Of a stretch of DNA of 64,000 nucleotides, positions 42,426 to 64,000 are shown piece by piece. The stretch is taken from IMG/VR virus record IMGVR_UViG_3300018012_000099. The stretch is one strand, 5' to 3'. The stretch is from a virus (lineage: Duplodnaviria > Caudoviricetes). The first letter of the stretch is position 1, and every line of letters starts with the position of its first letter. The position numbers and the translations under genes are program-made. The notes under the pieces are model-generated. The model searched no databases and was not told the origin of the DNA. It saw only the letters and a list, made by a program, of their open reading frames with translations.

Positions 42426-42899
42426 ATGGGAGACATGATGTCGAAAAATACGATAGATTATTCAGCTTTAGCCCAACAACTTACCAAAAAAGCCTATAAA
42501 CTCGCTGATGTTAAAGATCAGATTGAGAGTGTGGCTTTTGATGTAGTTCGTTTCAAAGATGGTGATAAAGCTGCTCAACTTTGGGAAGTTCAAAGTGCTG
42601 ACGACGGTGACTATATTGTCGCCCTATATGAAGAGGGCGAAGAGGTTGCTAAGACCGCCAGTGAGTGGAGCGTAGTCATTACTAAGACCGCCGGTGTACT
42701 ACAGGTTTCCTACAAGGGAGATCCGTTGGTTCGTTTGCCATTTACTAAACTTGGCATTCCTCGCGACCAATTAGGTAAGGTTCCCCAATATTTACCAGAA
42801 AAACTAACTTCTAACAAGAAATTGGTGAAGGCTCTGCTCAACGAGCTATCTGCTGAAGCCAAGCACGAGGTATTGAAGAAATACCCAGAACTGGCATAA
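42426..42899 (+). CDS. Hypothetical head-module protein
   Basis: 157 aa; real start may be 42435. Confidence 0.7.
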   Translation: MGDMMSKNTIDYSALAQQLTKKAYKLADVKDQIESVAFDVVRFKDGDKAAQLWEVQSADDGDYIVALYEEGEEVAKTASEWSVVITKTAGVLQVSYKGDPLVRLPFTKLGIPRDQLGKVPQYLPEKLTSNKKLVKALLNELSAEAKHEVLKKYPELA

Positions 42900-42915
42900 C
42901 GGAATAGGTGTATAA

Positions 42916-44526
42916 ATGAGTCTCGACAAAATTCAACAACTAATCAGTAATTTGGCAAAATCTGTAGAGAATAACGAAAAGTTAGCCACTCCGATCTTGG
43001 CTGCCAAATTAGCCAAGTGTGTTGTCGCCCACCCTCATGATCAAACTATCGGTATGATAGCCAGAGTTGTGAAGGATATGGCTGACAAAAACACACTTTT
43101 CATCCGTAAAGCCGAATTCAAAGACTTGGCCAGAAGATTTCATTCTCGTAATAGCAAATTTGCTGAGCTATTTGAAGAAGAGCTGGGCGAGACTGCACCA
43201 GAACCAAACGTTACTACTTTTCCGCGTGATGAGGCTGTTCAAGCTAATCCATATCATGTCGGTGACCAAGTGCTAGCTAATGCGTTAGAAAGCGCTTTTG
43301 ATAAACACCTTCCGCTGAAGATGTACTCTCAACCAGTAGCCGATAAGGCACTGAAATCCGTGGGTAATACTCTGGAAGCTTGGAACTTATCTCCTACTGC
43401 CCTAACTGTCAGTGCTGGCAGCGATAAGTTTATTGTCATTAAGGCTGATTATGAAACTCCAAAGGGTGTCACTAGCTTCTTTGTTCCCGTTGAGGTTCAT
43501 GGTAAGGATATTGTCGAAGCATCCGTCTTCATGGGTAATGCTGGTCCACAAGAGTTGAATCATACCACTATCAAGGCTTATCTTACTACTTTGGCTGGTT
43601 CCAAACTCAAGGTAGATGCTGTCAGCATTCTCGGTGTTTTGACCAAGGCTGCTTCCGAGCATCGTGAAGTTAGCGATGCTGAATTGGCTTTGACTCGTTT
43701 GACCGCTAAGCGTCAGGGCAAGTCCGAATTTTTCGAGGGCTCCGTCGTGGGCCAAAAGATGGCTGAGGCATCTCGTAAAGATGTTCAGCTACCACAATTG
43801 GAAGAATCTAAGACTTTTGAAGAGAAGTTCAATACCGTTCAAGGTTTAGCTGCATGGCAGTTCGGTACTGATAAAATCAATACTGCTAGAAACCACATCG
43901 TTCGTGAATTGGCTACTTTTGGTCATAAGAATCCACAAGTTGTAGTGACTGGTCATGACGACCACACTCTCTTCTTCGGTGTTTCTATAGATACCGGTAA
44001 GGTGGCTTTCACGGTCCCAGTAAAGGTTGCAGACGGAAAGTTAGTCAAGCCAACAGTCATGTTGTGCAACGGTTCGGTTTCTTTCTTCAGTCAGGCTGGT
44101 GTTAACCAATTTGTAACAGAGAGACGTATCGACAATAAGGTAGCTGCCGCCGCTTCTACTATGTCGGCTCTCAAGCCAAGTGAAGTTATTGCTAATTTGC
44201 GTCAAGCAGTTGCTGAAGCTAATTTTGAAAAAGCAGAAGACGCACTTAATGTGTTGGCTAACTCCGGCGATACTAAGGCTTACGCTACCGCATTCCAAAT
44301 CTACATGCACGGACTAGCTGGTCACACGCCAACCGAATCCAAGTGCAGACACGTTGTCAAGAGTGCCAAGACCACTGTTAGCGAGTTCCCAATTTGCGCC
44401 CAGACTGGCTTGCCAACCAACAAGGTATACCAAGACAAGGATGGTAACTGCCGTCCATTGTTCAGAAAAGATATGAGCGAAACCTACGAAGGTGCGGTTT
44501 TCAATAACGCCAAAATCTTCGGATAA
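42916..44526 (+). CDS. Hypothetical head-module protein (536 aa)
   Basis: Long Ala/Val-rich ORF with phage core codon usage. Confidence 0.75.
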   Translation: MSLDKIQQLISNLAKSVENNEKLATPILAAKLAKCVVAHPHDQTIGMIARVVKDMADKNTLFIRKAEFKDLARRFHSRNSKFAELFEEELGETAPEPNVTTFPRDEAVQANPYHVGDQVLANALESAFDKHLPLKMYSQPVADKALKSVGNTLEAWNLSPTALTVSAGSDKFIVIKADYETPKGVTSFFVPVEVHGKDIVEASVFMGNAGPQELNHTTIKAYLTTLAGSKLKVDAVSILGVLTKAASEHREVSDAELALTRLTAKRQGKSEFFEGSVVGQKMAEASRKDVQLPQLEESKTFEEKFNTVQGLAAWQFGTDKINTARNHIVRELATFGHKNPQVVVTGHDDHTLFFGVSIDTGKVAFTVPVKVADGKLVKPTVMLCNGSVSFFSQAGVNQFVTERRIDNKVAAAASTMSALKPSEVIANLRQAVAEANFEKAEDALNVLANSGDTKAYATAFQIYMHGLAGHTPTESKCRHVVKSAKTTVSEFPICAQTGLPTNKVYQDKDGNCRPLFRKDMSETYEGAVFNNAKIFG

Positions 44527-44529
44527 TTC

Positions 44530-45336
44530 ATGCAAAAGGTAGTCCGACTGGCCCAGCTCTTGGAATTAAAGTACGGGCTTCAGTCCAAGGCTGCTAACAT
44601 ATCAGAAGATCGAATAATCGCGGAAGTCAAGCGTGATGTGCTTGATGCTTTCCGTAATTACTTTTCGCGTTCTGCTAGGGACTCTATGTTCCAATATGCG
44701 GCTGACCTGGGTGAGGCTCAGTCTTCGGAACTAGTGTACAAGATGGATAAGCTTGTCAAAGATCTTGACAAGCTTAAGCCACAGAAATTGATGGAAGCGC
44801 TTAACGATGTCATCGGGTTGATATACCAAATGAAGCAAGACCCAACTAGAGCGGTTCGTAATGTCATTCATGATAGCGTACCGGGAGGTACGGAATCGCA
44901 GCGTAATACTCGTCAACGTTTATTGACCAAATATGAACGCTCTATGTCCATGGCATTTCCAGCTTTACAAAGGGCTGCGATTAAATTGCAAGTAATAGTA
45001 CCAAATGTGGCAATTCACGAAGGCAAGATATCTCGTGAACGTAGCGAATTATCTAAGCAGCAGTTAATCGATTTTATTATAGCTACCCCAACTTTCAAGA
45101 CCTACGGCGTTGATTCGTTGGATGTCATGGAAGAATTCCTTTCTGATCCAGAGATGAGGCAGCGCCTTATTACTTTGATTAACGCTGTCAAGAGAGGGCA
45201 CATTCCATTGGACGGCTCTCAAGTACAAGAGTTTGCTCGTCAAGTCAAACAGCTGCATAACCAAAGAAAACAAACTAACCTTCCTCAATTGGAAGAATCA
45301 GAACCGCCACCTCAGCCGGAAGCGGGAGAGGAATAA
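44530..45336 (+). CDS. Hypothetical helical protein
   Basis: 268-aa ORF. Confidence 0.7.
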   Translation: MQKVVRLAQLLELKYGLQSKAANISEDRIIAEVKRDVLDAFRNYFSRSARDSMFQYAADLGEAQSSELVYKMDKLVKDLDKLKPQKLMEALNDVIGLIYQMKQDPTRAVRNVIHDSVPGGTESQRNTRQRLLTKYERSMSMAFPALQRAAIKLQVIVPNVAIHEGKISRERSELSKQQLIDFIIATPTFKTYGVDSLDVMEEFLSDPEMRQRLITLINAVKRGHIPLDGSQVQEFARQVKQLHNQRKQTNLPQLEESEPPPQPEAGEE

Positions 45337-45366
45337 TCTGGTATTCTGTATCATACGGGAGAAACT

Positions 45367-46083: not shown

Positions 46084-46103
46084 TCGTTGATATATTTGTG
46101 GTT

Positions 46104-46829
46104 ATGAGCCAAAAGCGCATTCAATGGAATACTCAATTATTTGTGGAACGGTCCGCCGTCATCCACAATGGCAAGTATAAATATCCAGAAACATATATTA
46201 ATGCATTGACACCGATTGTAATTGAGTGTCCTATACATGGTCATTTTAAGCAGCAGCCACGACACCATTTAAACGGTCGTGGATGTCCAACATGTTTCCA
46301 TGAAAAATCAAGAAGTACTATCGATGATTTTGTTGAAAAAGCAAATGAAATTCATAATGGAAAATATACCTATCCTTGCAATTACATCAATTCTCGTACG
46401 TTAATAACTATTAGCTGTCCAATACATGGTTTGTTTGAGCAGAAGCCGCCTGTACATTTGGAAGGAAAGGGGTGTCCTTCTTGCGGAGATATTGCGAGAA
46501 GCGAATTTATTATGCCAATTATTTCTAAAATGGAAATAGACTGGCTCGATTCTCTTGGAATACCGCAAGAATATCGTCAGGCATCGCTTAAAATTGGTAG
46601 GAAAATAATCAAGGCGGATGCTTTTGTCCCGCCTACTAATACAGTTTATGAATTTTACGGTGACTATTGGCATGGCAACCCATTAAAATTTTCTTCTCAT
46701 TCTATAAATTCTGTTAAGGATAAGACATTTGGTGAGTTGTACCAGGCTACCCTTGCTCGCGAGCAGCTTATTGTTCAGGCTGGCTATAAAATCATATCTA
46801 TATGGGAATTAGACTGGAATAACCAATGA
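46104..46829 (+). CDS. DUF723-like repeat plus Vsr-like homing-type endonuclease
   Basis: Two HNGKY.YP...CPIHG.F.Q.P..HL.G.GCP.C repeats; EFYGDYWHGNP; paralog of 33..308. Confidence 0.8.
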   Translation: MSQKRIQWNTQLFVERSAVIHNGKYKYPETYINALTPIVIECPIHGHFKQQPRHHLNGRGCPTCFHEKSRSTIDDFVEKANEIHNGKYTYPCNYINSRTLITISCPIHGLFEQKPPVHLEGKGCPSCGDIARSEFIMPIISKMEIDWLDSLGIPQEYRQASLKIGRKIIKADAFVPPTNTVYEFYGDYWHGNPLKFSSHSINSVKDKTFGELYQATLAREQLIVQAGYKIISIWELDWNNQ

Positions 46830-47581: not shown

Positions 47582-47582
47582 T

Positions 47583-49475
47583 ATGTCAAAAGAAAAGAAG
47601 CCTATCAGAGACCCGCATTCCAAGAGCACGTTACGTGATATCGTAATGAAGCCTAGTAGTGGCGTGTTTGATATGGCAGGGATTGAAAACCCAAATGAGT
47701 TAAATGAAAAAATCAAGAGGCTCATCAAGTTTTTTGAAGAGTATGGTATTGATTATAATAAGTTAGACGAAGAAAATGTTACCAAGATTGCTTATCCTAA
47801 CTATGATCAATATATGCACATTCCTGGTCAACATAATTTGAAGAGATGGTTAGAAACAATTAGAAATATTTATGTTAGTGAGAAAAGTGGGCTAGATCGT
47901 GCTAATGCTGTTCGTCAAGCGACCACTGGTTGGAATTTAATGGAAACTTATGATTTCTTGAATTGGATGAAGTTCTATCAAGAAGGAGCTCACTTGAAAT
48001 ACAAAACAGCACAACTTTGGTATGAAAATGGTCAGCCAGGTTACTTTTTACAGATCAAACCAGATCCTACTAAACCAGAAGAGTCTGTAGTAGATCATCA
48101 TGCTATTCGTGATACACAAGAAGACATCGAACGTCAGGAAGATAGGAAGCGTATCATTGAGAAGCAACGTCAAAAGATTATCGGTCGTTTAGATTCTGCT
48201 GAAAAGTTATTACGCTCTCCTGAAGGACAAATGTTTGCTGGTCCTGAATTAGAAAATCTTATGGAAGCTATTTATAGTTTGAAAAAGAGAGTGCAGTTAG
48301 TCAATAAACTCAGCACTTCTACTCGTTTGTATGAAGATATGATTGTGCGCGAAGGTAATGTTTTACGTCGTAAGGGTTTTATCAAAGCTGCCGAAGTACT
48401 ATATTCGGTAGCTCAAGCTAATAATCCACCTCCTCCAGGTATTGGTAAACCGGGACCTATTGAAGCATTACCGCAACCAGTTCCACCAGATGATCCATCT
48501 GGCGCTGGACATCCCGGTCTTCCCGGTACACTTCCATCTTTGGGACCGGGTATGCCACAAGCTCCTAAGAGCCCACCTTCTACTAGCGAGACACAACCAG
48601 TCGACTTGAAGCCAGTTCCAGTACCAGATGGCACTATCGCTCAAGGACCGCCTTCTCCTATGCCTGAAAGTGTGCCCAAAGGAATCGCAGAATTTCTTGA
48701 TCAGACCGAGACAGGCGGCAAGACTACCCCTGAGGAATTGGGCGCAGAGGACAATCTAGAAGTGCAGGACACTTTGGAAGTCGAAGATGATCAATTAATG
48801 GTAACAGAAGCTCAAATGGCACCACCAGGTCCAGTAGCAGAGGATGTTCCAATGACCACGGCTCCCCGTCGTCTAAAGCCGTCTGTTTCACCGCCAGTCG
48901 CGGAGAAACTACTTGAAGTGACTGAAGATACTCCTCCAGCCAATGAAGCCGGGGTGGAACAAGCTGCCCCCGCAGCTAAGGATTTCGATCGTATTATCGA
49001 TTCTGCTCTAGCCAATGTGACTGTCAATGATGTGGTAGCTAAACTGGAAGATATTGCCAAAATTTTCAAGACTAGAGAAATTCCTCGTCAATTAGCCATG
49101 GTAGATATGATGTTAGATAGTTTAAATTTGGCCTCTATGTTTCCTACTCTTTCCGAAGCCATCAATAAATCTCTCGAATCTAATAACTATGTCTCTACTC
49201 GTTTGGATGATATTATTGCTAGACTACGTGGAGCCATGGTTAGTAAAGAAGTGGATCTCAAGGGAGGTAGCAATGCTCCTCGCGCTGGCAGTGTAGCCAA
49301 AAATTTACAAGATCAAGCCGATAAAGATGAAGCTCGTAAGAAGATGAGAAAAGACCAAGAGACCGCTGAACTAGAAGGTGGCGCTAAACCATCTCCTCAA
49401 GTAGAAATTGGCGAAGACCTAGGTGCTCAACCTCCAGCCGCTCCGGCTCCACCACCTCCACGCCCAGTAGGCTAA
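47583..49475 (+). CDS. Hypothetical head-module protein with Pro-rich linkers
   Basis: 630 aa; several K-x-A motifs at apparent domain boundaries. Confidence 0.75.
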   Translation: MSKEKKPIRDPHSKSTLRDIVMKPSSGVFDMAGIENPNELNEKIKRLIKFFEEYGIDYNKLDEENVTKIAYPNYDQYMHIPGQHNLKRWLETIRNIYVSEKSGLDRANAVRQATTGWNLMETYDFLNWMKFYQEGAHLKYKTAQLWYENGQPGYFLQIKPDPTKPEESVVDHHAIRDTQEDIERQEDRKRIIEKQRQKIIGRLDSAEKLLRSPEGQMFAGPELENLMEAIYSLKKRVQLVNKLSTSTRLYEDMIVREGNVLRRKGFIKAAEVLYSVAQANNPPPPGIGKPGPIEALPQPVPPDDPSGAGHPGLPGTLPSLGPGMPQAPKSPPSTSETQPVDLKPVPVPDGTIAQGPPSPMPESVPKGIAEFLDQTETGGKTTPEELGAEDNLEVQDTLEVEDDQLMVTEAQMAPPGPVAEDVPMTTAPRRLKPSVSPPVAEKLLEVTEDTPPANEAGVEQAAPAAKDFDRIIDSALANVTVNDVVAKLEDIAKIFKTREIPRQLAMVDMMLDSLNLASMFPTLSEAINKSLESNNYVSTRLDDIIARLRGAMVSKEVDLKGGSNAPRAGSVAKNLQDQADKDEARKKMRKDQETAELEGGAKPSPQVEIGEDLGAQPPAAPAPPPPRPVG

Positions 49476-49489
49476 ATCAAAGCAAATGA

Positions 49490-51208
49490 ATGAAACTACG
49501 CGAACTACTTCAACAATTAGTGGCAGTTCAAAAAGCGATAGGCGCCTCCACGCCCTATATCACTGGAGGAACACCTCGCGATAAGTTTATGAATCGATTA
49601 GATAATGTAGCCGATATTGATATCACCACTGGTGATAAAACGGTAGATTATCTGTCGCAAGAATTTGCTATTCAATTACGTAAGAAATACAACGTCACCC
49701 GAAAGACTATGGACGATGGACATAGTACTATCTTCATTGGTAATTTGAAGGTAGATTTCTCTTCTAATTTCATTGTTAATGATATAGAATCTTATTTACA
49801 AAAAATGGGAATTACTAATCCCACCGATCTACAAAAAGAAATGTTTAGTAGGGATTTTACTTGTAATACACTTTTACTAACTGTAGATTTAAAAAAGCTA
49901 TTAGATCCGACCAAGCGCGGTTTTCGTGACATTAGGGAGAAGAAAATAAAGACTTGTCTTGCTCCAGAAATTACATTAACCTCTAATAGAAATAGGGTGA
50001 TTAGATCTGTCTATTTAGCTTGCAAGTTGGGTTTTGAAGTGGATAAATCTATTATCGATTTTGTGCGCCAAAATCCACAGACAGTTAAAATCTCCACTGA
50101 AAAGGTAATGAATGAGAAATTGAATCAAGCTTTCGAAAAAGATGGAGATAAAGCCGCTAAACTCATCACGGAAATGGGTTTATGGAGTCTAATTCCTATC
50201 ACCGAGAAAGTTTACCCTTACTATATGAAACAAATTAAAGGAAGTGTAAAAGCTCGTGCCGCTCTCTTCAATCGAATTGTTAAACAAGCTGACGATGAGA
50301 ATGACGGACCTAATTTCGATTACGGTAAAGGGTTGTATTCCAATATGGGTAAATACAAGAGTGTTAAAGATTTCGAAGAGCATGCCGACAAAGGTCCGAG
50401 CGCTTTCTTTGCTGATGACAATGAAGATCATATGATGCCGCCCAAAGAACATGGAACCAAAATCTATGATTGGAAGAATAGTCCGTATCAAGGTACGCCA
50501 AAAAAACCAATCAAGGACAAGCATAAGTCCGATGATAATGACTTGGGCACCGGCTTCTACGAAAACTTGGAACACTATCAAAGTGTTAGAGATTTCATCG
50601 AGCATACTCCATTAGGACGCGACCACGGTGCTAAAATAAAGCCAGAATGGGCGCGAGCTAAGGACGTCAATCATATCGATTTCCCGGTAGACGAAGATAT
50701 CAATCATGACAGCCTGATTAGACCGGAAGAAGGTCAGTATCAGCCACCCAGACTAGTGGGTCCGTCTGGCACTGATGATCGAACCGTGCAACCTAGCGAT
50801 ACCGGTTTTGATAGCCCACAAATCGAATTTACCTCTCCACAAATTGCTGGCGAGCATAGCTATACACCATTGGACGATTTCGATGGTAGGTCTAGTGATG
50901 CCCTCAATTTTGGTCGAGATTATGATGACGAATCTGCTCCTGTGGGTCGTACCTGGGATGAAGCTTTCGTCGATGATTTAGAAGCCGAGGTGCGGGAAAA
51001 GGAATGGGATTTAGATAGGTTAGCAGCTAAATATGACAATTTAGACGACATGGATATGTTATCTCCTGCCGAAACTGAAATCTATGGATTACCGGATGGA
51101 GTAGATCCGGAAGCTAAAGATGGTGCTCAAACTATCCAAACTGAAAACCCTTTTACAAATACTCTTGATATGGGTCGTCAAATGTATGAAGATAAGTGGA
51201 ACATTTAA
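49490..51208 (+). CDS. Class II CCA-adding/poly(A) polymerase-like nucleotidyltransferase fused to an acidic repeat tail
   Basis: GGTPRD, DIDITT, SRDFTCN, DP..G..D....I, SNRNRVIRS in the EDxxR position; about 265-aa enzyme plus about 305-aa tail. Confidence 0.85.
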   Translation: MKLRELLQQLVAVQKAIGASTPYITGGTPRDKFMNRLDNVADIDITTGDKTVDYLSQEFAIQLRKKYNVTRKTMDDGHSTIFIGNLKVDFSSNFIVNDIESYLQKMGITNPTDLQKEMFSRDFTCNTLLLTVDLKKLLDPTKRGFRDIREKKIKTCLAPEITLTSNRNRVIRSVYLACKLGFEVDKSIIDFVRQNPQTVKISTEKVMNEKLNQAFEKDGDKAAKLITEMGLWSLIPITEKVYPYYMKQIKGSVKARAALFNRIVKQADDENDGPNFDYGKGLYSNMGKYKSVKDFEEHADKGPSAFFADDNEDHMMPPKEHGTKIYDWKNSPYQGTPKKPIKDKHKSDDNDLGTGFYENLEHYQSVRDFIEHTPLGRDHGAKIKPEWARAKDVNHIDFPVDEDINHDSLIRPEEGQYQPPRLVGPSGTDDRTVQPSDTGFDSPQIEFTSPQIAGEHSYTPLDDFDGRSSDALNFGRDYDDESAPVGRTWDEAFVDDLEAEVREKEWDLDRLAAKYDNLDDMDMLSPAETEIYGLPDGVDPEAKDGAQTIQTENPFTNTLDMGRQMYEDKWNI

Positions 51209-51274: not shown

Positions 51275-52225
51275 ATGTCATTACAGTCCACCGCTCAAGA
51301 ACAGCTTTTTGTCGTAGATCCAACAGCGATTACGCCGTTGGAGGTGTCTGTTCCGCTCAATGAGGGCGAAATGGGTTCCCTAGGGCTCAGTGGAGATGTT
51401 TCTCCTGAGGAAATGGCGGGCGCTCCCGCTCTAGAAGTGCATGAGCCAGTAGACAACGTAGAAATTGTCGTTGAAGAACTCCCAGGCGCCCCAGCTGGCA
51501 CCAAGGATCCTGAGCCAATGTTGGAAGTCAGCGAGCCAGGTATACAGGTGGATGAGAAGTCAGCCGCCGATGATCAGGATGCCAAGAAGTCCAACAAGAA
51601 CGAAAGATGGGATTGGGCTTCTAAAGGACCACACGGATTCGTGGGGTGGGTACAAGAGAAGATTAGTAGTGTACCCAAGCACTCTGGCTACGACTCTGCC
51701 GGATTAGAGCGAGCTATGGCTTACATGGAGAAGCTAGATAGTGAAATCTCTAAGGCTATGAGAATGGACTTGGACGGCGAACTAGACGCCAATAAGATTG
51801 AAGAGGTTCGCTCCAAATTGGATGAGGGTATTGCTCGTTTGCAAGATCGTCTCGACAAAGTGAAAGAATCTAAGAAGTCCTCTCGCAAGCGCAAAAAGTC
51901 TGCCGATGAAGCTTCTGAAGGTTTGGTCAAAGAGGCCCAGAAAATTTTGGGTGTGCAAGGCGTGTACATTATGGCTCCTCTGCTGATTTCGGGTATTGCC
52001 AGGATTTGTATTAATGGTTGCATTTCAGCCGGTCATGACATAAGTGATTTGTATCTTCGTCAAGTTAAGCAATGGAAATTGTCCGATCGTGAACAATTTG
52101 AGTTGAAGCAATTATTATTCGATATGGGGTTCCCGATGCCATATGATAGAAGCGTAATGGCTAATGAAGATTTCGATCCCGGTTCTGCGGATAACTATGA
52201 ATTAATGCAACAATTCAAGGGTTAA
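51275..52225 (+). CDS. Hypothetical head-module protein
   Basis: GAGG RBS; acidic N-terminal half. Confidence 0.7.
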   Translation: MSLQSTAQEQLFVVDPTAITPLEVSVPLNEGEMGSLGLSGDVSPEEMAGAPALEVHEPVDNVEIVVEELPGAPAGTKDPEPMLEVSEPGIQVDEKSAADDQDAKKSNKNERWDWASKGPHGFVGWVQEKISSVPKHSGYDSAGLERAMAYMEKLDSEISKAMRMDLDGELDANKIEEVRSKLDEGIARLQDRLDKVKESKKSSRKRKKSADEASEGLVKEAQKILGVQGVYIMAPLLISGIARICINGCISAGHDISDLYLRQVKQWKLSDREQFELKQLLFDMGFPMPYDRSVMANEDFDPGSADNYELMQQFKG

Positions 52226-52231
52226 GCGATC

Positions 52232-52900
52232 ATGTCTAAATACACCAGATATCAGTCAGTAGTCTCTAGAAATACTGACGAACATATTAGTGAAGATCAT
52301 TGGCTTAAGCAATTTGAAAAGTCTTTGGAGAAGGGCGCAGTACAACCCCGCCCTCAGAGTTCGCTGTACGACCAAATCAATTCTATCATGAATGGTACCC
52401 CATCCAAGTATCCTTCTGTGCAAGCAGCCGTGGATGATATGATGCAGCGTAGCGGTCTTAGTAATTATCTTAAAACTTCTAAAGAAAACGATGAGGGTAA
52501 TAAGAAAATAGCTGGCGATCAAAATGATAATTTTGACAAAACCATTCCCGTCGAACAAAAACAACAAGACACAAATATTCCGGATATTATTCGTGAAAAT
52601 CCAGCTATTCTCAAAACATTAGAGAATTATATTAGATCTACCCGTGGTAACTTACCTATTCCAGCTATTATAGATAAACTGCATTCTATTCATCGTACAG
52701 ATGTGCCAAAAGATAAAATGTGGGACGATGACAAACTCATTAGATTAGTTAGTAAACTAAATCTTGAAGCCAAAAAAAATAATCCAGCTAACTATGAGGA
52801 TTATGCCAATTTGGCAGTGGGTGATCGTGATACAGCTGATTCGAATGTGGATCCATCCAATACGGACGCTTTTAATGCTTTAATGCCAGCCAAATTGTAA
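52232..52900 (+). CDS. Hypothetical head-module protein
   Basis: 222 aa directly upstream of the terminase. Confidence 0.7.
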   Translation: MSKYTRYQSVVSRNTDEHISEDHWLKQFEKSLEKGAVQPRPQSSLYDQINSIMNGTPSKYPSVQAAVDDMMQRSGLSNYLKTSKENDEGNKKIAGDQNDNFDKTIPVEQKQQDTNIPDIIRENPAILKTLENYIRSTRGNLPIPAIIDKLHSIHRTDVPKDKMWDDDKLIRLVSKLNLEAKKNNPANYEDYANLAVGDRDTADSNVDPSNTDAFNALMPAKL

Positions 52901-52908
52901 TTAAATAA

Positions 52909-54860: not shown

Positions 54861-56756
54861 ATGGCTAGTAATAAACCCCCTAAACAATGGCAGGGACCAT
54901 CAAAATCAGACCAATATATGGATAAGCGTTCAACTGTTCCACAAGTTAGCGCTATTATGGCCCAAGGTGTTTCCAAAGAAAGAAGAGCGATTCTTTCTGA
55001 TGAAGTTGATCAGGGTGCATTTCGTGATGGTTCTGGACCTACCTACAGTCAGAGAGTAGCAGAAAATCTTGAAACTGCTAACGCCCGTGTCGTGGCATCT
55101 GTTGGTGGATTCAAAAAGAACGCTCAAGTAGTTAGTAGTGTGGGCGGTATGTTCCGTGGTATTCACGGAGATTCTGTCAAACAAACTCCTGAAGTATATT
55201 CTCCTCTGTGGCTCAATTCCAACCTTAATCTACCCCGTGATAGGGCTACTATCAATGCTTGGTGTCGTAGCTTTTATGCTTTGAATCCTTTCGTACATAA
55301 TGCTATCAATCTTCACAGTACTTACCCAATTAGTAAGCTAAGCATTAAGTGTCCTAATAAAGATATTGAGAAGTTCTTCAACGATATGATTGAAGAAATC
55401 GATTTGATGAACATATGTGTACAAATCGCTCAGGAGTACTGGTTACTCGGTGAAGCCTTTGTATATTCTGAACTAGATGAAAGCAAAGGTAAGTGGAGTC
55501 GTTTGCTGATTCAGAACCCAGACTTTATGGTGGTTAAGCGTACCGTAGTGGCTAATGAACCTATTATCCAATTGCGTCCAGATCCTAATCTACAAAAGAT
55601 TATCTTCTCTAACCGTCCTAGTGATATTGAACAGCGCAAACAATTAAACCAACATATCATTGATTCGGTGCGTCGTGGTGAAAATATTCCTCTAGACAAC
55701 TTTCATGTTTCTCATTTGGCTCGTCGTATCAGTCCTTATGAAATCAGAGGTACTGGACTACCAGTCTGTATTTTTCGTCAATTGATGTTATTTGATAAGT
55801 TACGCGAATCCAAATATGCTCAAGCTGATAATATGATCAATCCACTCACCATCGTTAAGATTGGTTCGGCTGATTATAAACCTACTTTCGCCGACTTAGA
55901 AGCTTGGAGAAGTACTTTCGAAGAAGCTCAATATGATAAGGATTTCAAGATTTTTACTCATGAAGGCGTAGATGTTACTAGAGTAGGTTATGGTCAAGGT
56001 ATCTACGATATTTCTGGTGATATTACTCAGTTAGTTAAAGAAATCTACGTGGGACTTCAGGTTCCACCGGTGTTGATGGATGGTGGTGCCGATACTACTT
56101 ACGCCAATGGTGGTGTAGCTTTAGATGTTTTGCGTCAGCGTTACATGCAGTTTCGTAATATGATGTCCCAGTGGTTGAAACGCAAAATCTTTGCTCCTAT
56201 CTCCAAAATTCAAGGATTCTACGATTATTCCGGTGGAGAGAAGCAGCTCATCGTTCCAGAGATTGACTGGAATCATATGTCCTTGTTCGATGCCGGAGAT
56301 TACATTAATAGCATCGTCACTTTAACTCAAGGCACTGATGAAGCTAAGAGAGTTTCTTTGCATACCCTATATCGTTCGATCGGTTTGGAATTTGAAGATG
56401 AAACTCGTAAAATTCGCAAGGAAGCTATCCAAAACGCCATTGCCAAAAAGGAAAAGGCAGCTTTGGAGGCTATGGACCTCAACGCTCTTCGTGCTCTGGA
56501 TGAGGAAGATGAAATTCCGGAACCAGAAAAGAAGCCAGGACAAGAAGAACAGCCAGTTCCGGGCGAAACTCCAGGTGGCGCACCACCTCCAGGTGGTATG
56601 CCAGATTTGGGATTGCCGAGTGGTCCGCCTCCAGGTCCGCTTCCAGGTGGAGGAGCCGCAGCGCTTCCTGCGGCACCTCCAGGTGGCGAGGCGCCCCCGG
56701 GCGGTGGGACACCCCCAGCCGCTCCGCCAGTAGGCGGACCACCGCCCGGTCCATAA
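54861..56756 (+). CDS. Portal protein with Pro/Gly-rich C-terminal tail
   Basis: Follows terL; NPFVHNAIN, YWLLGEAF, H.....SPY..RG, VPPVL..G, TYAN, Q.R pattern typical of portals. Confidence 0.78.
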   Translation: MASNKPPKQWQGPSKSDQYMDKRSTVPQVSAIMAQGVSKERRAILSDEVDQGAFRDGSGPTYSQRVAENLETANARVVASVGGFKKNAQVVSSVGGMFRGIHGDSVKQTPEVYSPLWLNSNLNLPRDRATINAWCRSFYALNPFVHNAINLHSTYPISKLSIKCPNKDIEKFFNDMIEEIDLMNICVQIAQEYWLLGEAFVYSELDESKGKWSRLLIQNPDFMVVKRTVVANEPIIQLRPDPNLQKIIFSNRPSDIEQRKQLNQHIIDSVRRGENIPLDNFHVSHLARRISPYEIRGTGLPVCIFRQLMLFDKLRESKYAQADNMINPLTIVKIGSADYKPTFADLEAWRSTFEEAQYDKDFKIFTHEGVDVTRVGYGQGIYDISGDITQLVKEIYVGLQVPPVLMDGGADTTYANGGVALDVLRQRYMQFRNMMSQWLKRKIFAPISKIQGFYDYSGGEKQLIVPEIDWNHMSLFDAGDYINSIVTLTQGTDEAKRVSLHTLYRSIGLEFEDETRKIRKEAIQNAIAKKEKAALEAMDLNALRALDEEDEIPEPEKKPGQEEQPVPGETPGGAPPPGGMPDLGLPSGPPPGPLPGGGAAALPAAPPGGEAPPGGGTPPAAPPVGGPPPGP

Positions 56757-56841: not shown

Positions 56842-58152
56842 ATGGATAAAATTGCCCAAAAGAGAAGTCTTCTTAACAGATTGCACGAAATGGCCAATGT
56901 TCCAGCTCGTTCAGCTGAAGAATTCTTCAAACCAGAACTCAAAAGAGTTATGAATGTCTTAATTGATGCCGATGATGTAGTTCGTTCCACATTAGCTGGC
57001 TCGAAGGTAGGTAAAGCTACCCCAGAAGATCCTATCTCAGCCAAGGATTTACTCAAAGAGGCTAAGTCTTTCATCAATCGTCGCGAATATTTATCTGCCG
57101 TGGCCAGTTTAGGTAGATTCCACAAGAAGATGAGTGATGTAGCTAGTGTTCTCAAGAATCTTGACTTGAATGTTAATAACATTCATCACCGCTTCTTGTT
57201 TGAAAAGCTACCAGGCAAACACAAGGAACAGTTAGAGAATATGCGTTCCCGTTTTGCTAGCGAACAATCAGAATACTTTATCAAAGAAGCTAATATTATG
57301 GATTTCTTCCATAATATTGGTACACAACGTGGTCGTGCTTTGGCTGCTTGGGAGAAAAGATATCCTAAAGTAGTTGGTAAAATCCGTGAAGGTGCCATTT
57401 CTCAATTGGAGAATGCTCAAAATATGTTGGAACATTCTTTAACTTTGCTCAAGACAATGGCTTCTGCTAGAGCCGGTCGTAATATTGATGCTTATTTAGA
57501 AGCCAGTAAAGAATTAACTAACGCTTTCAATAAATATGATAATGGTAAAGGCGGTTTCAAAAATTATTATACCGATGTTATTAGACCATATTTAGATACA
57601 CAAGCTAAGATTGAAGCTGAGGAAGCCACCAAGGTCTCTGTTCCTGATTCTTCTAAGGTTTCTCCTGTCGGATCTAATTCCGACACTAGTGGTACTGTTC
57701 CTGCTGGTCCATTACCCGATGCGTTCAAACCAGCGCCCGGACCTGGTGTTACTGGTGAAACTTTGCCAGGTGTTGCTCCACCCACGCAATCATCTCAGGC
57801 TAAACCTGGCGATACTTTAAGTGTGACACCATTACCACCGCCCCCTAACGTTCCATCTGATGTGACTCCGGTGGCTCCCCATCCACCAGTGGTACCCTCT
57901 TTGCCGGTACCAAATGTTCCAGAACAATCTAAACTGGAGAAAGTACATCAAGAAATTATGAAAGAATGGGAAGCCAAAAATAAAAGTAGAACCAGTTCTT
58001 ACAACTCTTTCATTGAGTCTTTAGAGGTATTTTCTAATGAAGATCCTGCTCTATTGGCTGCGCATATTTCTACGTATGCTCGCTCCATTCAAGTTGATGA
58101 TCCAAATACTGCTATTCAATTGTTCAAAATTTCCAAATCTTTGAGGAGGTAA
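56842..58152 (+). CDS. Hypothetical head-module protein
   Basis: 436 aa; starts MDKIAQ; Pro-rich linker. Confidence 0.7.
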   Translation: MDKIAQKRSLLNRLHEMANVPARSAEEFFKPELKRVMNVLIDADDVVRSTLAGSKVGKATPEDPISAKDLLKEAKSFINRREYLSAVASLGRFHKKMSDVASVLKNLDLNVNNIHHRFLFEKLPGKHKEQLENMRSRFASEQSEYFIKEANIMDFFHNIGTQRGRALAAWEKRYPKVVGKIREGAISQLENAQNMLEHSLTLLKTMASARAGRNIDAYLEASKELTNAFNKYDNGKGGFKNYYTDVIRPYLDTQAKIEAEEATKVSVPDSSKVSPVGSNSDTSGTVPAGPLPDAFKPAPGPGVTGETLPGVAPPTQSSQAKPGDTLSVTPLPPPPNVPSDVTPVAPHPPVVPSLPVPNVPEQSKLEKVHQEIMKEWEAKNKSRTSSYNSFIESLEVFSNEDPALLAAHISTYARSIQVDDPNTAIQLFKISKSLRR

Positions 58153-58153
58153 G

Positions 58154-59281: not shown

Positions 59282-59290
59282 GGAAATAAG

Positions 59291-59722
59291 ATGGTTACCG
59301 AACAGGAAGTACAAGAACTAGCGACCAGTAGTAAGAATTCTGGAAGAACTTTAGCTGAGTTCATAGCTGAGTTATATAAAGGCAAGTTTCTAGAAATCTA
59401 TGTTGGTGATTCCTATGAAGAGATAAGTGTGGATCAAGTATCTACTTCTTATCCGGCTGTTTTTTGCGGAAAAGTAGTAACTGCATATAGAGAAGCCTTG
59501 GTCATCAATTGTGTGTTTACCAATCAAGCCAACAAGCTACAACTAGGTAATATAGTGTGCATTAGCGAAAGAGCTATCAGAGCCTTGAATGAAGTGGATG
59601 GAAAAGGAACTTTAGAAGATATGTTGCTGCGTAGCAAAGAAACTTTAGCTATCAAAGAGATGTTTATTGATCCTCCTCGCCACGCACGCCTACCACCCAC
59701 CGTACAACCACCAAAGAAGTAA
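59291..59722 (+). CDS. Hypothetical protein
   Basis: 143 aa; AGGA RBS. Confidence 0.65.
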   Translation: MVTEQEVQELATSSKNSGRTLAEFIAELYKGKFLEIYVGDSYEEISVDQVSTSYPAVFCGKVVTAYREALVINCVFTNQANKLQLGNIVCISERAIRALNEVDGKGTLEDMLLRSKETLAIKEMFIDPPRHARLPPTVQPPKK

Positions 59723-60466
59723 ATGAGAACACTCGATGAGATCGTACAACTTGCCGACAACTTTGAACAACGTTGTCAAGATAGTTTGGTAAAGATTGCG
59801 GTGGTCCGCAAATTACCAAACGGCAAGTATCGTGTACTTTCTCAAAAGGGTAAGAACTTAGGAACCTTCGATTCGGAAAAGGCTGCTAACAAACATCTCA
59901 GACAGGTGGAGTATTTCAAACACCTAGATAAGTCGCACGCCGAGGACGATACCTCCGTTATCGATTTGACTGATGCCGACGAATTTGCCTATTCTGCCAT
60001 CATGCGTAAAATGCGTGAAAAGGCTTCTAAAGAGCAGGTAACCATTTTCCTCAAGCTATTCAAAGCCGAATTCGATCGTGCCGTCAAAGCTAAGTTGAAG
60101 AAGCCAGAGCGTTTGGCTTTACAAAACGCTCTGGTCAAGTTCAACAAACTACATAAGATTAAGCTAAGCAAGAAGATGGTCAAGAGTGCAGCCGTTAGCG
60201 AGTTGGGAGACTCCAGGGCTGTTGGCGCCTATTTGGCTAATATCGTCACTTTTATTCTCAATCGTGTGCCACCTGACCATAGACTTATCGCTCGCGATAG
60301 ACTCAAGCAAAAGTTTGCTTTAATGAATACAGATGACATCGCTTCCAAACATTTGCCCGACTCCGCAGCCGTTGCTCAATCTATTACCTTTGTCAAGCAC
60401 GTGCTATTCAATCATGACTCCAACTACATTAAAGAAGTTCTTAACGCCCTGGTGAGCGCACTATGA
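59723..60466 (+). CDS. Hypothetical head-module protein
   Basis: Contains the small phage-type module VRKLPNGKYRVLSQKGKNLGTFDSEKAANKHLRQVE. Confidence 0.7.
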   Translation: MRTLDEIVQLADNFEQRCQDSLVKIAVVRKLPNGKYRVLSQKGKNLGTFDSEKAANKHLRQVEYFKHLDKSHAEDDTSVIDLTDADEFAYSAIMRKMREKASKEQVTIFLKLFKAEFDRAVKAKLKKPERLALQNALVKFNKLHKIKLSKKMVKSAAVSELGDSRAVGAYLANIVTFILNRVPPDHRLIARDRLKQKFALMNTDDIASKHLPDSAAVAQSITFVKHVLFNHDSNYIKEVLNALVSAL

Positions 60467-61248
60467 TACACCGATTGCGTAAAGTCGCAGACGGTTTGTT
60501 CCGTGGTAGCGCTCCGACACCAAAGGATGTTTTATGGCTCAAAGAAATTTTAGGCATCAAGAAGATTGTGTCTTTAGATAAAGAGGCTGGTGATAAAATT
60601 GATCGTGCTTGTAAAATGTTGGGTATTGATCATGTCAAAGCTTATATAGAAGGTGTAGATAGAAAGTCTTTGTATAATGTTTTGAGTCAAAATTTGAAGC
60701 ATCTATTAATAGATGGTGGTCCTACATATTTTCATTGTCATGAAGGTAAAGATAGAACTGGTTTACTTGCTGCTTTATTTAAGTGTAAATATATGGGCAT
60801 GGATCCGGAGGCTGCTATTACTGAAGCCAAATCTTTAGGATTTGGTGTTGGTATTCCGCCAGAGATTACTCACCTATATGAGAAGTTGATTCGCGCCTGT
60901 AAACCGCATAAAGATCCAGATGTTAATAATGCTGATATAGTCGGTAATGAAAGAGAGTATATCAGTGATAATCGCGATACTTTCTTGGATGAGAGCCGTC
61001 AAAGCTCTTGGGCTCCATACCTAGATCATACTCGTCAAAACCCAATGGATGCCGTTTATGTTTATATAAATGACCAATCTCCTACTCGTGAAAATTACCA
61101 ACAAACTTGGAAAGAGCCGAAGGAGAGGTTGGAAGAAGCAATAAATTCGCATGAAGATACCATACCTCAAGTTGGCACTTTTAATAATGATGCGGGCGCT
61201 AGAGGATTTGGACCCACCGAAAACTATAGTGGATTTTTTTATGATTAA
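60463..61248 (+). CDS. Cys-dependent (PTP/dual-specificity, Siw14-like) phosphatase
   Basis: LFRGSAP, GIKKIVSL, P-loop FHCHEGKDRTG. Confidence 0.85.
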   Translation: MIHRLRKVADGLFRGSAPTPKDVLWLKEILGIKKIVSLDKEAGDKIDRACKMLGIDHVKAYIEGVDRKSLYNVLSQNLKHLLIDGGPTYFHCHEGKDRTGLLAALFKCKYMGMDPEAAITEAKSLGFGVGIPPEITHLYEKLIRACKPHKDPDVNNADIVGNEREYISDNRDTFLDESRQSSWAPYLDHTRQNPMDAVYVYINDQSPTRENYQQTWKEPKERLEEAINSHEDTIPQVGTFNNDAGARGFGPTENYSGFFYD

Positions 61249-61876
61249 GAAAAAGGCTTACGCTGTACAAATGAGCTATGAAGTGTCTGACGATGAAAAA
61301 CGTCAGGCAGAACATGCTCTTTTGTGTTTTGAGGCATCTCTTAAAGTGCTTCAACAAGCCTCCGATCATCTCAATATTTTAAAGACTCCATTTAAAGATA
61401 ACCCGGAAATGAGTCCTGATGAGGTTATGAAGGCCCGCGCCGCCCTCCGTCGTTTTAGAGACAAATCTATCGATAATTTTAATCATTTTAAAGAAGTATC
61501 TTTTCGATGTGTTAACACCATGCAGGTTTTTGCTTCGGATACGCAATCAGTAAAATTGATGAAGTCTATGATTACTGCCATCGATGAGTTAGAGGTAGAC
61601 GTTAATAATTTTTCTGAAGTATTTGATGATTTGCAATCTAAAGATTTTTCTAAAAATGTAGTATCTGCTATCGAAAATGTCCAAAAACAGTGTGATGATA
61701 TTGAAGAGATCATTGATGAAAGAATTAAACCACATATTCAGAATAATATTCTTGCCACAAGCTGGGTGGATTCAGTTAGTCAAGATTTACAGATGAAAAT
61801 TGAAAAACAGACTCCTCTTATTATGGATTTGTATAATCAGAGGCAAGAACAGCTAAATGATGCTATTAAGGAGTGA
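61241..61876 (+). CDS. Hypothetical helical head-module protein
   Basis: Starts MIKKKAY at ATG 61241. Confidence 0.7.
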   Translation: MIKKKAYAVQMSYEVSDDEKRQAEHALLCFEASLKVLQQASDHLNILKTPFKDNPEMSPDEVMKARAALRRFRDKSIDNFNHFKEVSFRCVNTMQVFASDTQSVKLMKSMITAIDELEVDVNNFSEVFDDLQSKDFSKNVVSAIENVQKQCDDIEEIIDERIKPHIQNNILATSWVDSVSQDLQMKIEKQTPLIMDLYNQRQEQLNDAIKE

Positions 61877-61996
61877 AGCACAGTAGGTAACTAAAATACT
61901 GGTAATATCGCCACATATAATTGATTTCCATATGATTAACGGAAATTTGTAGCAATATTATATTATACCTGTGTGATCTCCCACTTGGAGAGTGTG

Positions 61997-62143
61997 ATGT
62001 TTATTAAGCACGGCGACGGAAAAATTACTGGCGTTCTTAACGAAGAAAAGCTGACAGAAGAACAAAAAAAATCTGTCGAGAAAGCCGTTAAAGAAACGCA
62101 ACCACCAACTGATACTTCTGAAGAGAAGAAATCAGGGAGCTAA
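61997..62143 (+). CDS. 48-aa small protein (below the ORF-track cutoff)
   Basis: GGAG RBS; MFIKHGDGKITGVLNEEKLTEEQKKSVEKAVKETQPPTDTSEEKKSGS*. Confidence 0.7.
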   Translation: MFIKHGDGKITGVLNEEKLTEEQKKSVEKAVKETQPPTDTSEEKKSGS

Positions 62144-62146
62144 TAC

Positions 62147-64000
62147 ATGCCATTTAACAAATACGGTGAAACTGTTGAGATTAGAATTGAAAACACGGAA
62201 TCGTGTATTCCAGCAGTGAGTCCTGAGATTTTGGAAAACTTCCAGAAGTTTGCTACCAATCTGAAAAAGATTGCGCCAAAGGCAGAAGACTTCTTGTACT
62301 TTTCTGCGGTTATGATGCACGCTGCTGAAGCAGCCGCCCTCAATGACGATGGCACCCCAAGAATGACCGCCAAGGGCGAAGCCGCCCAAGTGAGCTGGGA
62401 TAAAAGCAATAATACTTGGAAATGGGTATCTAATGACCCTAACATTAAGCCATATAAGAATTCTAATGGCGACATTTTCCCCGAAGAAGAATTAGTTAAA
62501 GCACATAAAAAGTGGGTTCACAAGCCTCTTTGCATCGATCATAAGTCCAGTTCGGTAGATCATGTAAGAGGTTTTATTGTTGATACATATTATGATCGCA
62601 ATCTCAAGCGAGTGATTGCGTTATGCGCTTTGGACAAGGCAGGCTATCCTCAATTAGCTAGAAACGTCTCTACGGGCATTTCTAACTGCGTCTCCATGGG
62701 TACGGCTGTGGGTCGTGCTATCTGCACCGATTGCTCCCGTGTGGCTCGTACCGAACAAGATTTTTGTTCTCATATGAAGAATAAGTCTTGCTACGGTGAA
62801 ATCAATATAGACTTGAATCCAATAGAATTATCAATAGTAATGAATGGAGCTGATCAAAGAGCTACCATTAAGCATGTTCTAGCTGCTGCCAATACCCTCA
62901 ATACTTATGTTGAGAATAAGCAAAAGGAATTAGCCAAATTAGCTGATCTGAGTTTTTCAGCTAGTTTGATCGTAAATGACCCACAAGGTATTGAAGGTGG
63001 TGGTTCATCTACCTTCCAGGTAAATGGAAATAATATAGATAAATTCAAGGCCGATCTTGATGAAGCCTTCCAAAGATTGACCGAAATAGCCAATGCTGCA
63101 AAAAAATCTGAAAAAGATACTAATCTTTCAGCATTTAATCAATCGTCGGGCTCCATCTCTATGGATGAAAGTGCCGAAACAGATTCTGGATTGGCTCTCC
63201 AAACTCCGCAAACCGTTAGGTTTGCATCTGCTGATGAGGCAGGTATCAGTGAGCTTCGTGAAGTTACAGCTGCTATCGAAGCCAAACTCAACCAAATGAA
63301 ACACAGCTTGGATAAGTTAGCACAAACTTCTATAAAAACACAAGAGGAAACAATGACTGGATCAAACGAACTGAATAAGAAGGGTTACTACCAGGGAGCC
63401 GGCGGCGTGAATGAGCCAACTCCAGGTCAAGCAAAATATCCTAAGGACCCCCTCAACGAACAACTTCGTGAGAATGAGGATAAACAAATGGTAGGTCAAC
63501 CACCTTTCCCAGGTGTGGGCCCAGTTGATGGAATGCACCCTTCTCCGGGTTCTGCGGATCCATCTGATGAACTACAACGTAAGAAGATGTTAGCCCGTGC
63601 CGAAGCTGAAGAGCGCGCATTGCGTCGTCAAGCTATCGTCAACTTGGCTAAGGAAGCCTTGCAGAATAAGGAAGCTTATTTCCAAGGTGGCGGTGGTGTT
63701 AACGAACCCACTCCAAACAAGCCAAAGTATCCTAAGGACAAGCTCAACGAAGAGTTGCGTGAGTACGAAGATAAGCAGATGGTTGGTCAACCACCTTTCC
63801 CGGGCGTCGGTCCAGTCGATGGCTTACATCCTTCTCCTTCTTCCGCTGATCCTAAGGACGAGTTGAAGCGTAAACAAATGCTCGCTCGTGCTAATGCTCT
63901 CACTGGTCGTTTTACCAAAGCTGCTAATGAAGACGGCACTCTCAACCAGGGCAACAGTGCTTGGGAAATCTTCCTCGGCGAGAAGCTCTTGTTAACTGCT
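62147..64000 (+). CDS. Prohead protease-scaffold polyprotein, 3'-truncated by the window (absent from the ORF track)
   Basis: Open for 618 codons from MPFNKYG; NSNGDIFPEEEL, IDH, VSMG, C..C...FC.H, ELSIV..GAD assemblin/HK97-like protease pattern, followed by helical and repeat regions. Confidence 0.8.
   Translation, partial: MPFNKYGETVEIRIENTESCIPAVSPEILENFQKFATNLKKIAPKAEDFLYFSAVMMHAAEAAALNDDGTPRMTAKGEAAQVSWDKSNNTWKWVSNDPNIKPYKNSNGDIFPEEELVKAHKKWVHKPLCIDHKSSSVDHVRGFIVDTYYDRNLKRVIALCALDKAGYPQLARNVSTGISNCVSMGTAVGRAICTDCSRVARTEQDFCSHMKNKSCYGEINIDLNPIELSIVMNGADQRATIKHVLAAANTLNTYVENKQKELAKLADLSFSASLIVNDPQGIEGGGSSTFQVNGNNIDKFKADLDEAFQRLTEIANAAKKSEKDTNLSAFNQSSGSISMDESAETDSGLALQTPQTVRFASADEAGISELREVTAAIEAKLNQMKHSLDKLAQTSIKTQEETMTGSNELNKKGYYQGAGGVNEPTPGQAKYPKDPLNEQLRENEDKQMVGQPPFPGVGPVDGMHPSPGSADPSDELQRKKMLARAEAEERALRRQAIVNLAKEALQNKEAYFQGGGGVNEPTPNKPKYPKDKLNEELREYEDKQMVGQPPFPGVGPVDGLHPSPSSADPKDELKRKQMLARANALTGRFTKAANEDGTLNQGNSAWEIFLGEKLLLTA
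63377..63892 (+). repeat. Two 75-aa direct repeats (63377..63601 and 63668..63892) in the protease-scaffold ORF
   Basis: K(KG/EA)Y(Y/F)QG.GGVNEPTP...KYPKD.LNE.LRE.EDKQMVGQPPFPGVGPVDG.HPSP.SADP.DEL.RK.MLARA; 291-nt period. Confidence 0.9.

Follow-up and report, generated by a model that had tools for sequence, protein, structure and literature searches.

Herein, the window denotes the whole 64,000-nucleotide stretch of IMG/VR virus record IMGVR_UViG_3300018012_000099 (Caudoviricetes), and this analysis concerns a short K-x-A motif that recurs in its head-morphogenesis block, together with the protease-scaffold fusion gene that starts at 62147 in that block. All long open reading frames (ORFs) of the window lie on the + strand. 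The replication module occupies 1-42 kb and encodes SbcCD, a DNA polymerase and a UvsX-like recombinase. The morphogenesis block starts at 42.4 kb and includes the large terminase (52909), the portal (54861), an SLT-domain protein (58154), a PTP-like phosphatase (60463) and the 62147 gene. A nucleotide search returned no match of the window to cultivated phages at the DNA level. When proteins are compared, Bacillus phage G is the closest cultivated phage (portal gp14, 33%; gp19, 32%), with the Bxz1-type mycobacteriophages next, and hundreds of relatives are present in IMG/VR on contigs of up to 480 kb. The protein-level kinship to phage G and the size of these contigs place the window in a giant, uncultivated phage of the phage-G lineage.

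The original prediction had read K-x-(A/G) strings in the head-module proteins as the cleavage code of a prohead protease. Every motif string that it cited was found at the named genes. Raw counts were compared with a shuffled expectation, and sites are numbered as for a protease, with Ala at P1 and Lys at P3. Plain K-x-A was only marginally enriched in the window (57 against 45.3 expected, z 1.9). No clear excess was obtained for K-x-[AG] (z 1.5) or for K-x-A with a hydrophobic P4 residue (z 0.6), and K-x-G was at chance (z 0.2). With a hydrophobic residue at P5, 30 copies of hydrophobic-x-K-x-A were counted in 42-64 kb against 11.9 expected (z 5.2), and 22 against 20.8 expected, no excess, in 1-42 kb. 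The comparison of the two regions, which had been suggested as a check of the prediction, was positive (Fisher odds ratio 2.6, p 6e-4). The reversed pattern, A-x-K-x-hydrophobic, gave a raw z of 2.1. The excess is visible only when the hydrophobic P5 is required or when conservation is added.

For the conserved-pair scan, ORFs were called in about 220 related IMG/VR loci and the orthologs of each window protein were aligned. The head genes that lie past the window end in the relatives were aligned likewise, and the alignments were cut to 90% non-redundancy. All residue pairs at a spacing of 1-4 among columns at least 80% conserved were scored (n = 1078 testable pairs) against a null in which residue labels were shuffled among the conserved columns within each protein. 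The scan was applied to 30 head-module proteins, with 44 replication proteins as the control. Lys followed by Ala two positions later (K+2A) was the top pair of the 1078 in the head-module proteins, with 42 occurrences where 15.2 were expected (z 7.3), a count that none of 1000 permutations reached. In the replication proteins K+2A was found 7 times against 12 expected, and the top pair there was C-x-x-C. The head-module excess survives removal of the scaffold (28 against 10.8, z 5.4) and restriction either to the 42-64 kb range of the window (18 against 8.1, z 3.6) or to the downstream genes (10 against 2.7, z 4.9), and it holds at conservation cut-offs of 0.7 and 0.9. The pairs A+2K (z -0.4), K+1A, K+3A, R+2A, E+2A, K+2L and K+2G are all near chance in the same scan. 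The triple [LFIM]-x-K-x-A with all three residues conserved occurs 18 times in the head-module proteins against 2.6 expected (z 9.5) and twice in the replication control against 2.2; the reverse triple occurs 3 times against 2.6 (z 0.2). The motif is real, directional, conserved and specific to the head module.

The two codes known from other phages were scored in the same way. Neither stood out in the head proteins: the T4-type code reached only z 2.1 (conserved LIV+2E, 39 against 28.9) and the phiKZ-type code z -0.2 (conserved SAG+2E, 29 against 30.2), against z 7.3 for K+2A. Gly was rejected as a general part of the K-x-(A/G) code, with 12 conserved K-x-G pairs against 15 expected and a raw count at chance. 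The Ala half of the predicted code is retained, and Gly is confined to particular sites, namely N-terminal leaders and cassette starts.

In the logo of the sites, P5 is L/F/I/M in 61%, P4 is Val-biased, P3 is Lys in 94%, P2 is free, P1 is Ala in 93%, and P1' is Q/A/E/S. The conservation maxima fall at P5, P3 and P1, and this period of two fits an extended strand and not a helix. A protease site that binds in an extended conformation would be expected to give this pattern of conserved P5, P3 and P1 with a free P2. The sites share no similarity in their flanks and are therefore independent, not copies of one module. The surroundings of the sites are more asymmetric and less conserved than those of other conserved lysines (p ~0.01), and Pro-rich linkers adjoin several of them. 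Ten of the 42 sites fall among the first 40 residues, a nominal excess over the roughly 6 expected from the placement of conserved lysines (51/358).

The sites and genes of the block up to 62147 are as follows; the arrow marks the proposed bond, and decimal values are conservation among the orthologs.

42426-42899, + strand: first protein of the block; T-K-K-A↓Y at 42480-42497 and A-K-T-A↓S at 42645-42662, with K and A passing the 0.8 cut-off in both
44581-44598, + strand: S-K-A-A↓N in the 44530 gene; 0.0
47583-49475, + strand: Pro-rich head-module protein; T-K-I-A↓Y at 47778-47795 (0.68), Y-K-T-A↓Q at 47997-48014 (1.0) and F-I-K-A-A↓E at 48378-48395 (0.94)
49490-51208, + strand: nucleotidyltransferase with an acidic tail (PHROG tRNA nucleotidyltransferase); I-V-K-Q-A↓D at 50276-50293 (0.88)
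51275-52225, + strand: head-module protein; L-V-K-E-A↓Q at 51923-51940 (1.0)
52232-52900, + strand: head-module protein; K-K-I-A↓G at 52499-52516, with K and A at 0.8-0.9 and adjacent columns at 0.1-0.4
52909-54786, + strand: large terminase (PHROG terminase, E 8e-58)
54861-56756, + strand: portal (PHROG portal, E 1.6e-51); F-K-K-N-A↓Q at 55110-55127 (0.89), upstream of the conserved core
56842-58152, + strand: head protein, function unassigned; M-D-K-I-A↓Q at 56842-56859 and F-I-K-E-A↓N at 57277-57294 (both 0.94), in a protein of mean identity 0.34
59723-60466, + strand: head-module protein; L-V-K-I-A↓V at 59786-59803 (0.85) and M-V-K-S-A↓A at 60176-60193 (1.0)
60475-60492, + strand: L-R-K-V-A↓D in the PTP-like phosphatase; 0.07
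61241-61876, + strand: protein starting with M-I-K-K-K-A↓Y; orthologs start with M-I-K-K-[A/S]-Y
61997-62143, + strand: 48-residue protein starting with M-F-I-K-H-G↓D (0.97); orthologs begin at that Met

About 14 window proteins hold a conserved copy of the motif. Conservation reaches 0.85-1.0 for MDKIA↓Q, FIKEA↓N, LVKEA↓Q, YKTA↓Q, IVKQA↓D, KKIA↓G, FKKNA↓Q, LVKIA↓V, MVKSA↓A, MFIKHG↓D, FNKYG↓E and NKKG↓Y, and is partial (0.68-0.79) for TKIA↓Y, MIKK(K)A↓Y, AKLA↓D, DKLA↓Q and NKEA↓Y. The proteins that carry most of the cited sites have a mean identity of 0.34-0.6. Most of the cited sites are thus conserved in orthologs, with the exception of SKAA↓N (0.0), which is probably a chance occurrence in the 44530 gene, and LRKVA↓D (0.07), where the phosphatase orthologs read M-I-[RK]-R-F-R-x-V. 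The choice of 61241 and 61997 as start codons, instead of the longer ORFs from 61151 and 61973, is backed by the orthologs. In the 61241 leader, K with A/G is found in 0.68 and K/R with A/G/S in 0.97, Ser being frequent at P1. Several of the sites are islands or mark boundaries. KKIA↓G stands in an otherwise variable stretch, FIKEA↓N in the 56842 protein opens a conserved domain after a variable linker, and LVKEA↓Q separates a basic, variable linker from the conserved C-terminal domain that follows it (conservation 0.54 upstream, 0.84 downstream). The large terminase, in which K-x-G sites are listed, has no conserved K-x-A although 63% of its columns are conserved; this non-virion protein of the block is an internal negative.

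The gene at 62147 follows the terminase and the portal in the head module, and in the relatives the major capsid gene lies about 10 kb downstream. Its features are listed below.

62147-64000, + strand, open at the 3' end: protease-scaffold fusion (PHROG phrog_18299, head maturation protease, E 1.8e-12)
62153-62170, + strand: N-terminal leader F-N-K-Y-G↓E; 1.0 in the loci, 97% of 116 homologs
62267-62965, + strand: folded protease domain, residues 41-273
62930-62947, + strand: L-A-K-L-A↓D at the C-terminal end of the protease domain; K and A pass 0.8, joint motif 0.79
63371-63388, + strand: L-N-K-K-G↓Y at the start of cassette 1 (Y-Y-Q-G-A-G-G-V-N-E-P-T-P...); 0.94 in the loci, 76% of 116 homologs
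63662-63679, + strand: Q-N-K-E-A↓Y at the start of cassette 2; 0.76 in the loci, 59% of 116 homologs

The full-length product in the relatives has about 1,190-1,250 residues, and the part within the window starts with the protease domain, which is followed by a linker, a helical segment and two cassettes rich in Gly and Pro. Among 1.8 billion representatives searched, 1,525 were homologous to it. The protease domain was modelled by AlphaFold2 (AF2) from 47 diverse homologs (47-78% identity), with a pLDDT of 91.4; a model built from 19 close orthologs reached only 42. In VIA the model matched T4 gp21 (5jbl_B, Z 10.3, root-mean-square deviation 3.2 Å, 127 residues aligned) and the varicella-zoster virus (VZV) protease (1vzv, Z 10.1). 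Further matches were the pseudorabies virus (PRV; 9.5) and human cytomegalovirus (HCMV; ~8) proteases, and all matches with Z of at least 8 were T4 gp21- or herpesvirus-type proteases. The Foldseek match was weak by itself (E 6.5e-3). No Pfam protease family, including Peptidase_S78, was matched at E up to 1 by the 47 homologs or the window protein, and a profile search against the sequences of solved structures gave no match to the protease. By its model, the 62147 protease domain has the assemblin fold, herpesvirus members of which cleave after Ala, and on this point the original prediction is supported. His132 (62540-62542) and Ser183 (62693-62695) are invariant in 47/47 homologs, are also present in phage G gp19, and form a candidate catalytic pair; His209, a candidate for the third catalytic residue, is not invariant. 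A complex prediction of the protease domain with major capsid residues 1-60 scored 0.01 and weighs neither way.

Two features of the domain stand apart from the motif. A Cys-rich insert (62700-62790; C-x2-C ... C-x-H) directly follows the Ser183 motif; its three cysteines never vary among the 47 homologs and recur in phage G gp19. The insert may represent a zinc ribbon, and we know of no description of one in assemblin-fold proteases. Homologs P0016, P0027, P0045 and others (1,400-1,670 residues) carry an insertion of about 400 residues after approximately residue 105 of the protease domain. The insertion of P0016 is an intein that includes a homing endonuclease of the LAGLIDADG type (Pfam Intein_splicing 2.7e-13, LAGLIDADG_3 1e-12).

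The motif was also followed through 116 aligned protease-scaffold homologs of 30-58% identity. About 12 K-x-[AG] positions are kept across them while P2 varies, and the raw K-x-A count has a mean of 20.4 against 12.9 expected (reverse, 12.8 against 12.9). In the N-terminal leader, P1 is Gly in 65% and Ala in 32%, P2 is free, and the distance to Met1 is variable, which argues against an effect of start-codon context. At the cassette 1 site, P1 is Ala in 72%, Gly in 17% and Ser in 10%. Conservation drops to 0.38 downstream of L-A-K-L-A↓D, which is a candidate self-release site; phage G gp19 has L-L-K-I-A↓S in a similar region.

The cassette module is also found outside the scaffold. In the 49490 gene, I-V-K-Q-A↓D closes the nucleotidyltransferase part ahead of a region rich in insertions and deletions. 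The nucleotidyltransferase and its tail form one gene in the window and two genes in many relatives (for example L010, 3611-5666, and L026, 3823-5650). The second of the split genes starts with M-S-x-N-K-x-[GA] and continues with Y-F-Q-G-G-G-G-V-N-E-P-T-P, the module that opens each scaffold cassette, and the fused forms have K-x-A at residue 250-262 before the same Y-F-Q-G-G-G-G module. A leader of only 5-7 residues that ends in the motif suggests that the following residue must become a free N-terminus. The window copy of 49490 has lost about 100 residues, including the Y-F-Q-G-G-G-G-V-N-E-P-T-P module.

The head genes past the window end show the motif as well. The major capsid protein encoded there is 56% identical to phage G gp27 and has an N-terminal extension of about 55 residues that is not in gp27. 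L-V-K-Y-A↓[A/S] is present in 25/25 of the commonest N-terminal variants among 120 major capsid proteins, while the preceding residues vary. Other downstream head genes of the relatives begin with M-F-I-K-F-G or hold S-F-V-K-I-A↓Q near the start. The major capsid protein (L083, 1369-2382; Pfam PF25209) is a small HK97-type shell protein and unusually slow-evolving, the portal being just 33% identical to that of phage G.

The same excess is found in two cultivated relatives that carry a homologous protease (27-33% identity). K-x-A occurs 16 times in phage G gp19-gp21 against 6.3 expected (z 4.3) and 19 times in gp94 of Mycobacterium phage Rizal against 8.3 expected (z 4.0), with reverse and neighbouring patterns at chance in both. 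In phage G, where the protease and the scaffold-like genes are separate, gp9, gp13, gp14, gp19, gp20 and gp21 have K-x-A in the first 22 residues. Candidate strings in these proteins are S-K-V-A (gp9), S-K-T-A (gp13), A-K-Q-A (gp14), V-K-I-A and L-K-I-A (gp19), K-K-T-A (gp20) and K-K-L-A (gp21), and those in the major capsid protein gp96 of a Bxz1-type mycobacteriophage are E-K-Q-A and A-K-L-A. Rizal gp94 (L223, 8839-12951) is, like the window protein, a fusion, with 1,370 residues and the homologous protease domain near its N-terminus; it is high-GC and Lys-poor, and does not show the P5 preference evident in the window clade. Its gene is followed by gp95 and then by the gene for the major head protein. 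Although noted as a 'tape measure' in its record, gp94 is most likely a mis-annotated protease-scaffold fusion.

A prohead-protease cleavage code is the most economical reading of these data. In this reading, which we consider probable, the assemblin-fold serine protease at 62147 recognizes hydrophobic(P5)-x-Lys(P3)-x-Ala(P1) and cuts there, Ala being replaced by Gly or Ser at a few sites. Cleavage itself, the bond after Ala and the 62147 protease as the enzyme are what we infer from the sequences. The protease-scaffold fusion would co-assemble inside the prohead, and the activated protease would remove its own short N-terminal leader and free itself from the scaffold near residue 266. The scaffold would be cut at a dozen or more K-x-A sites into fragments able to leave the shell. 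The major capsid protein would be trimmed after L-V-K-Y-A and the portal at its N-terminus. In about a dozen function-unassigned proteins of the block, presumed to be internal head proteins, leaders of 5-35 residues would be removed or domains parted. The earlier proposal of about 15 capsid-targeted polyproteins is close to the number of window proteins with a conserved copy, but most of the sites are N-terminal leaders or single junctions, and among these proteins the term polyprotein would suit the protease-scaffold and nucleotidyltransferase fusions alone. The proposal that basic propeptides act as packaging signals was not supported; several leaders, such as major capsid residues 1-26 and residues 1-26 of the 59723 protein, are near neutral or acidic when read off the sequence.

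Several observations weigh against a cleavage code or reduce the weight of its evidence. Removal of a leader as short as five residues is conjectural. Y-K-T-A↓Q, which is embedded in a highly conserved block, may be structural, and the same could hold for E-S-K-Y-A-Q in a well-conserved block of the portal core. The invariant site L-K-K-I-A-P has Pro at P1' and probably belongs to the fold, uncut. The best 120 of the 1,749 metagenomic major capsid homologs are all at least 87% identical, so the conservation of L-V-K-Y-A there says little. Phage G gp27 has no K-x-A near its N-terminus, and A-K-Q-A↓A near the N-terminus of the phage G portal does not align with the window portal site. Head proteins are also more helical or disordered than the enzymes of the control set, and the permutation null controls for composition and not for structural class; despite this mismatch, the strict directionality makes a helical artefact unlikely.

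This last point bears on the possibility that the motif is a by-product of Ala/Lys-rich amphipathic helices in scaffold-like head proteins, with no shared recognition. The plain K-x-A excess of only z 1.9, the raw z of 2.1 for the reversed pattern and a control set of enzymes, a different structural class, would suit it. However, among conserved columns A+2K and all the neighbouring pairs stay near zero, the triple stands at z 9.5 and its reverse at 0.2, P5, P3 and P1 are fixed around a free P2, and the bias extends to the high-GC, Lys-poor Rizal gp94; we regard this explanation as very improbable. A shared recognition without cleavage, in which K-x-A is a docking or capsid-targeting motif that binds scaffold, shell or protease and cleavage occurs elsewhere or not at all, is unlikely on other grounds. 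It would be expected to show the same head-module specificity and conservation, and an N-terminal position suits a targeting signal. Copies are also found, however, at junctions inside proteins, where the protease domain ends, and in about a dozen places in the scaffold, which needs no targeting. Period-two conservation, a free P2 and a small P1 are typical of protease subsites, and the split genes keep just 5-7 residues ahead of the motif.

If the motif does mark cleavage, the bond or the enzyme could differ. The scissile bond cannot be placed by sequence alone, and HK97 gp5 is cut at Lys103↓Ser104, with Lys at P1; a cut after Lys, or by another enzyme such as a host protease or the ClpP annotated in phage G, can be envisaged. 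This is quite improbable, as assemblin-fold enzymes of known specificity read P3 and P1, the motif follows the homologous protease gene over three distant clades, and the residue after the free position is small (Ala far more than Gly or Ser), which suits an S1 pocket.

The cleavage code proposed here was compared with known systems. T4 gp21 cleaves (L/I)-x-E↓ and herpesvirus assemblins cleave (V/L/I)-x-A↓S. These assemblin-fold enzymes, and that of phiKZ, read P3 and P1, so that Lys at P3 together with Ala at P1 is compatible with the fold. In T4, as proposed here, a single protease of this fold processes the shell, the scaffold, proteins of the portal region and internal head proteins; its short motif is read at P3 and P1, and short N-terminal leaders are among the targets. 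In contrast to gp21, P1 here is Ala and not Glu, P3 is Lys and not Leu/Ile, and a hydrophobic P5 is added; the enzyme is joined in one chain to a scaffold of about 1,000 residues, has the Cys-rich insert and lacks a Pfam protease-family match. The herpesvirus protease shares the fold and the Ala at P1 and is likewise fused to its scaffold, from which it is released by self-cleavage. It differs in an aliphatic P3 and in Ser at P1', where Q/A/E/S is found here, and it cuts two sites in one precursor, whereas dozens of sites in many proteins are proposed here. In P2 gpO and lambda gpC-Nu3, too, a single gene encodes a protease domain at the N-terminus and a scaffold at the C-terminus, but with about 280-440 residues, against about 1,200 with repeated cassettes here. 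The lambda gpC protease belongs to another fold family, and to our knowledge no K-x-A code has been described for P2 gpO or lambda gpC-Nu3. In giant phages, phiKZ gp175 and SPN3US gp245 process many head and ejection proteins (PMC10052503, PMC13282480), and the phiKZ motif is (S/A/G)-x-E↓ (PMC13282480, PMC10052503); the motif here differs and the phage lineage is unrelated. A 2026 jumbo-phage review gives only the phiKZ motif (PMC13282480). No K-x-A prohead-protease motif of a phage, and no cleavage code for the phage-G lineage, was found in the literature covered, which took in part of the structural work on phage G.

A broader claim can be set at about even chances. It holds that a large, widespread lineage, comprising uncultivated phages of 200-480 kb, phage G and Bxz1-type mycobacteriophages, matures its capsids by means of a K-x-A↓ code, the reader of which is an assemblin-fold protease in fusion with a giant scaffold, with the Ala P1 shared with herpesvirus assemblins and not with T4 or phiKZ. 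Such a code would define processed head proteins and candidate ejection proteins from sequence. It would include five-residue leaders in which Met1 takes the P5 position, and released Y-F-Q-G-G-G-G cassettes, which are also found at the start of an unrelated nucleotidyltransferase-associated protein. The protease codes of T4 and phiKZ-like phages allow the mature virion proteome, the propeptides and the packaged proteins to be read from the genome. If true, the K-x-A code would provide a rule that flags capsid-internal proteins in hundreds of metagenomic giant-phage genomes, here including the nucleotidyltransferase partner and several function-unassigned proteins, and would add a phage protease that shares its P1 preference with herpesvirus assemblins. 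The idea is testable in two cultivated systems, phage G and the Bxz1-type mycobacteriophages.

Other features of the block were also noted. Pro/Gly-rich low-complexity stretches are located at 56540-56756 (portal C-terminus), 48420-48900 (47583 protein) and 57700-57950 (56842 protein), and several such stretches come after a K-x-A↓Q site in the relatives. In phage G (L001), gp5, gp8, gp9, gp10, gp12, gp13, gp17 and gp20 start with a basic x-R-[LI]-K-K or K-R-L-I, and the M-I-[RK]-R-F-R start of the window phosphatase family may be a leader of the same kind, distinct from K-x-A. An HNH endonuclease gene (46098-46829; PHROG E 8e-28) lies inside the head block. Its orthologs are found in only 5-9 related loci, against 30-40 for the neighbouring genes, and it is probably a mobile insertion.

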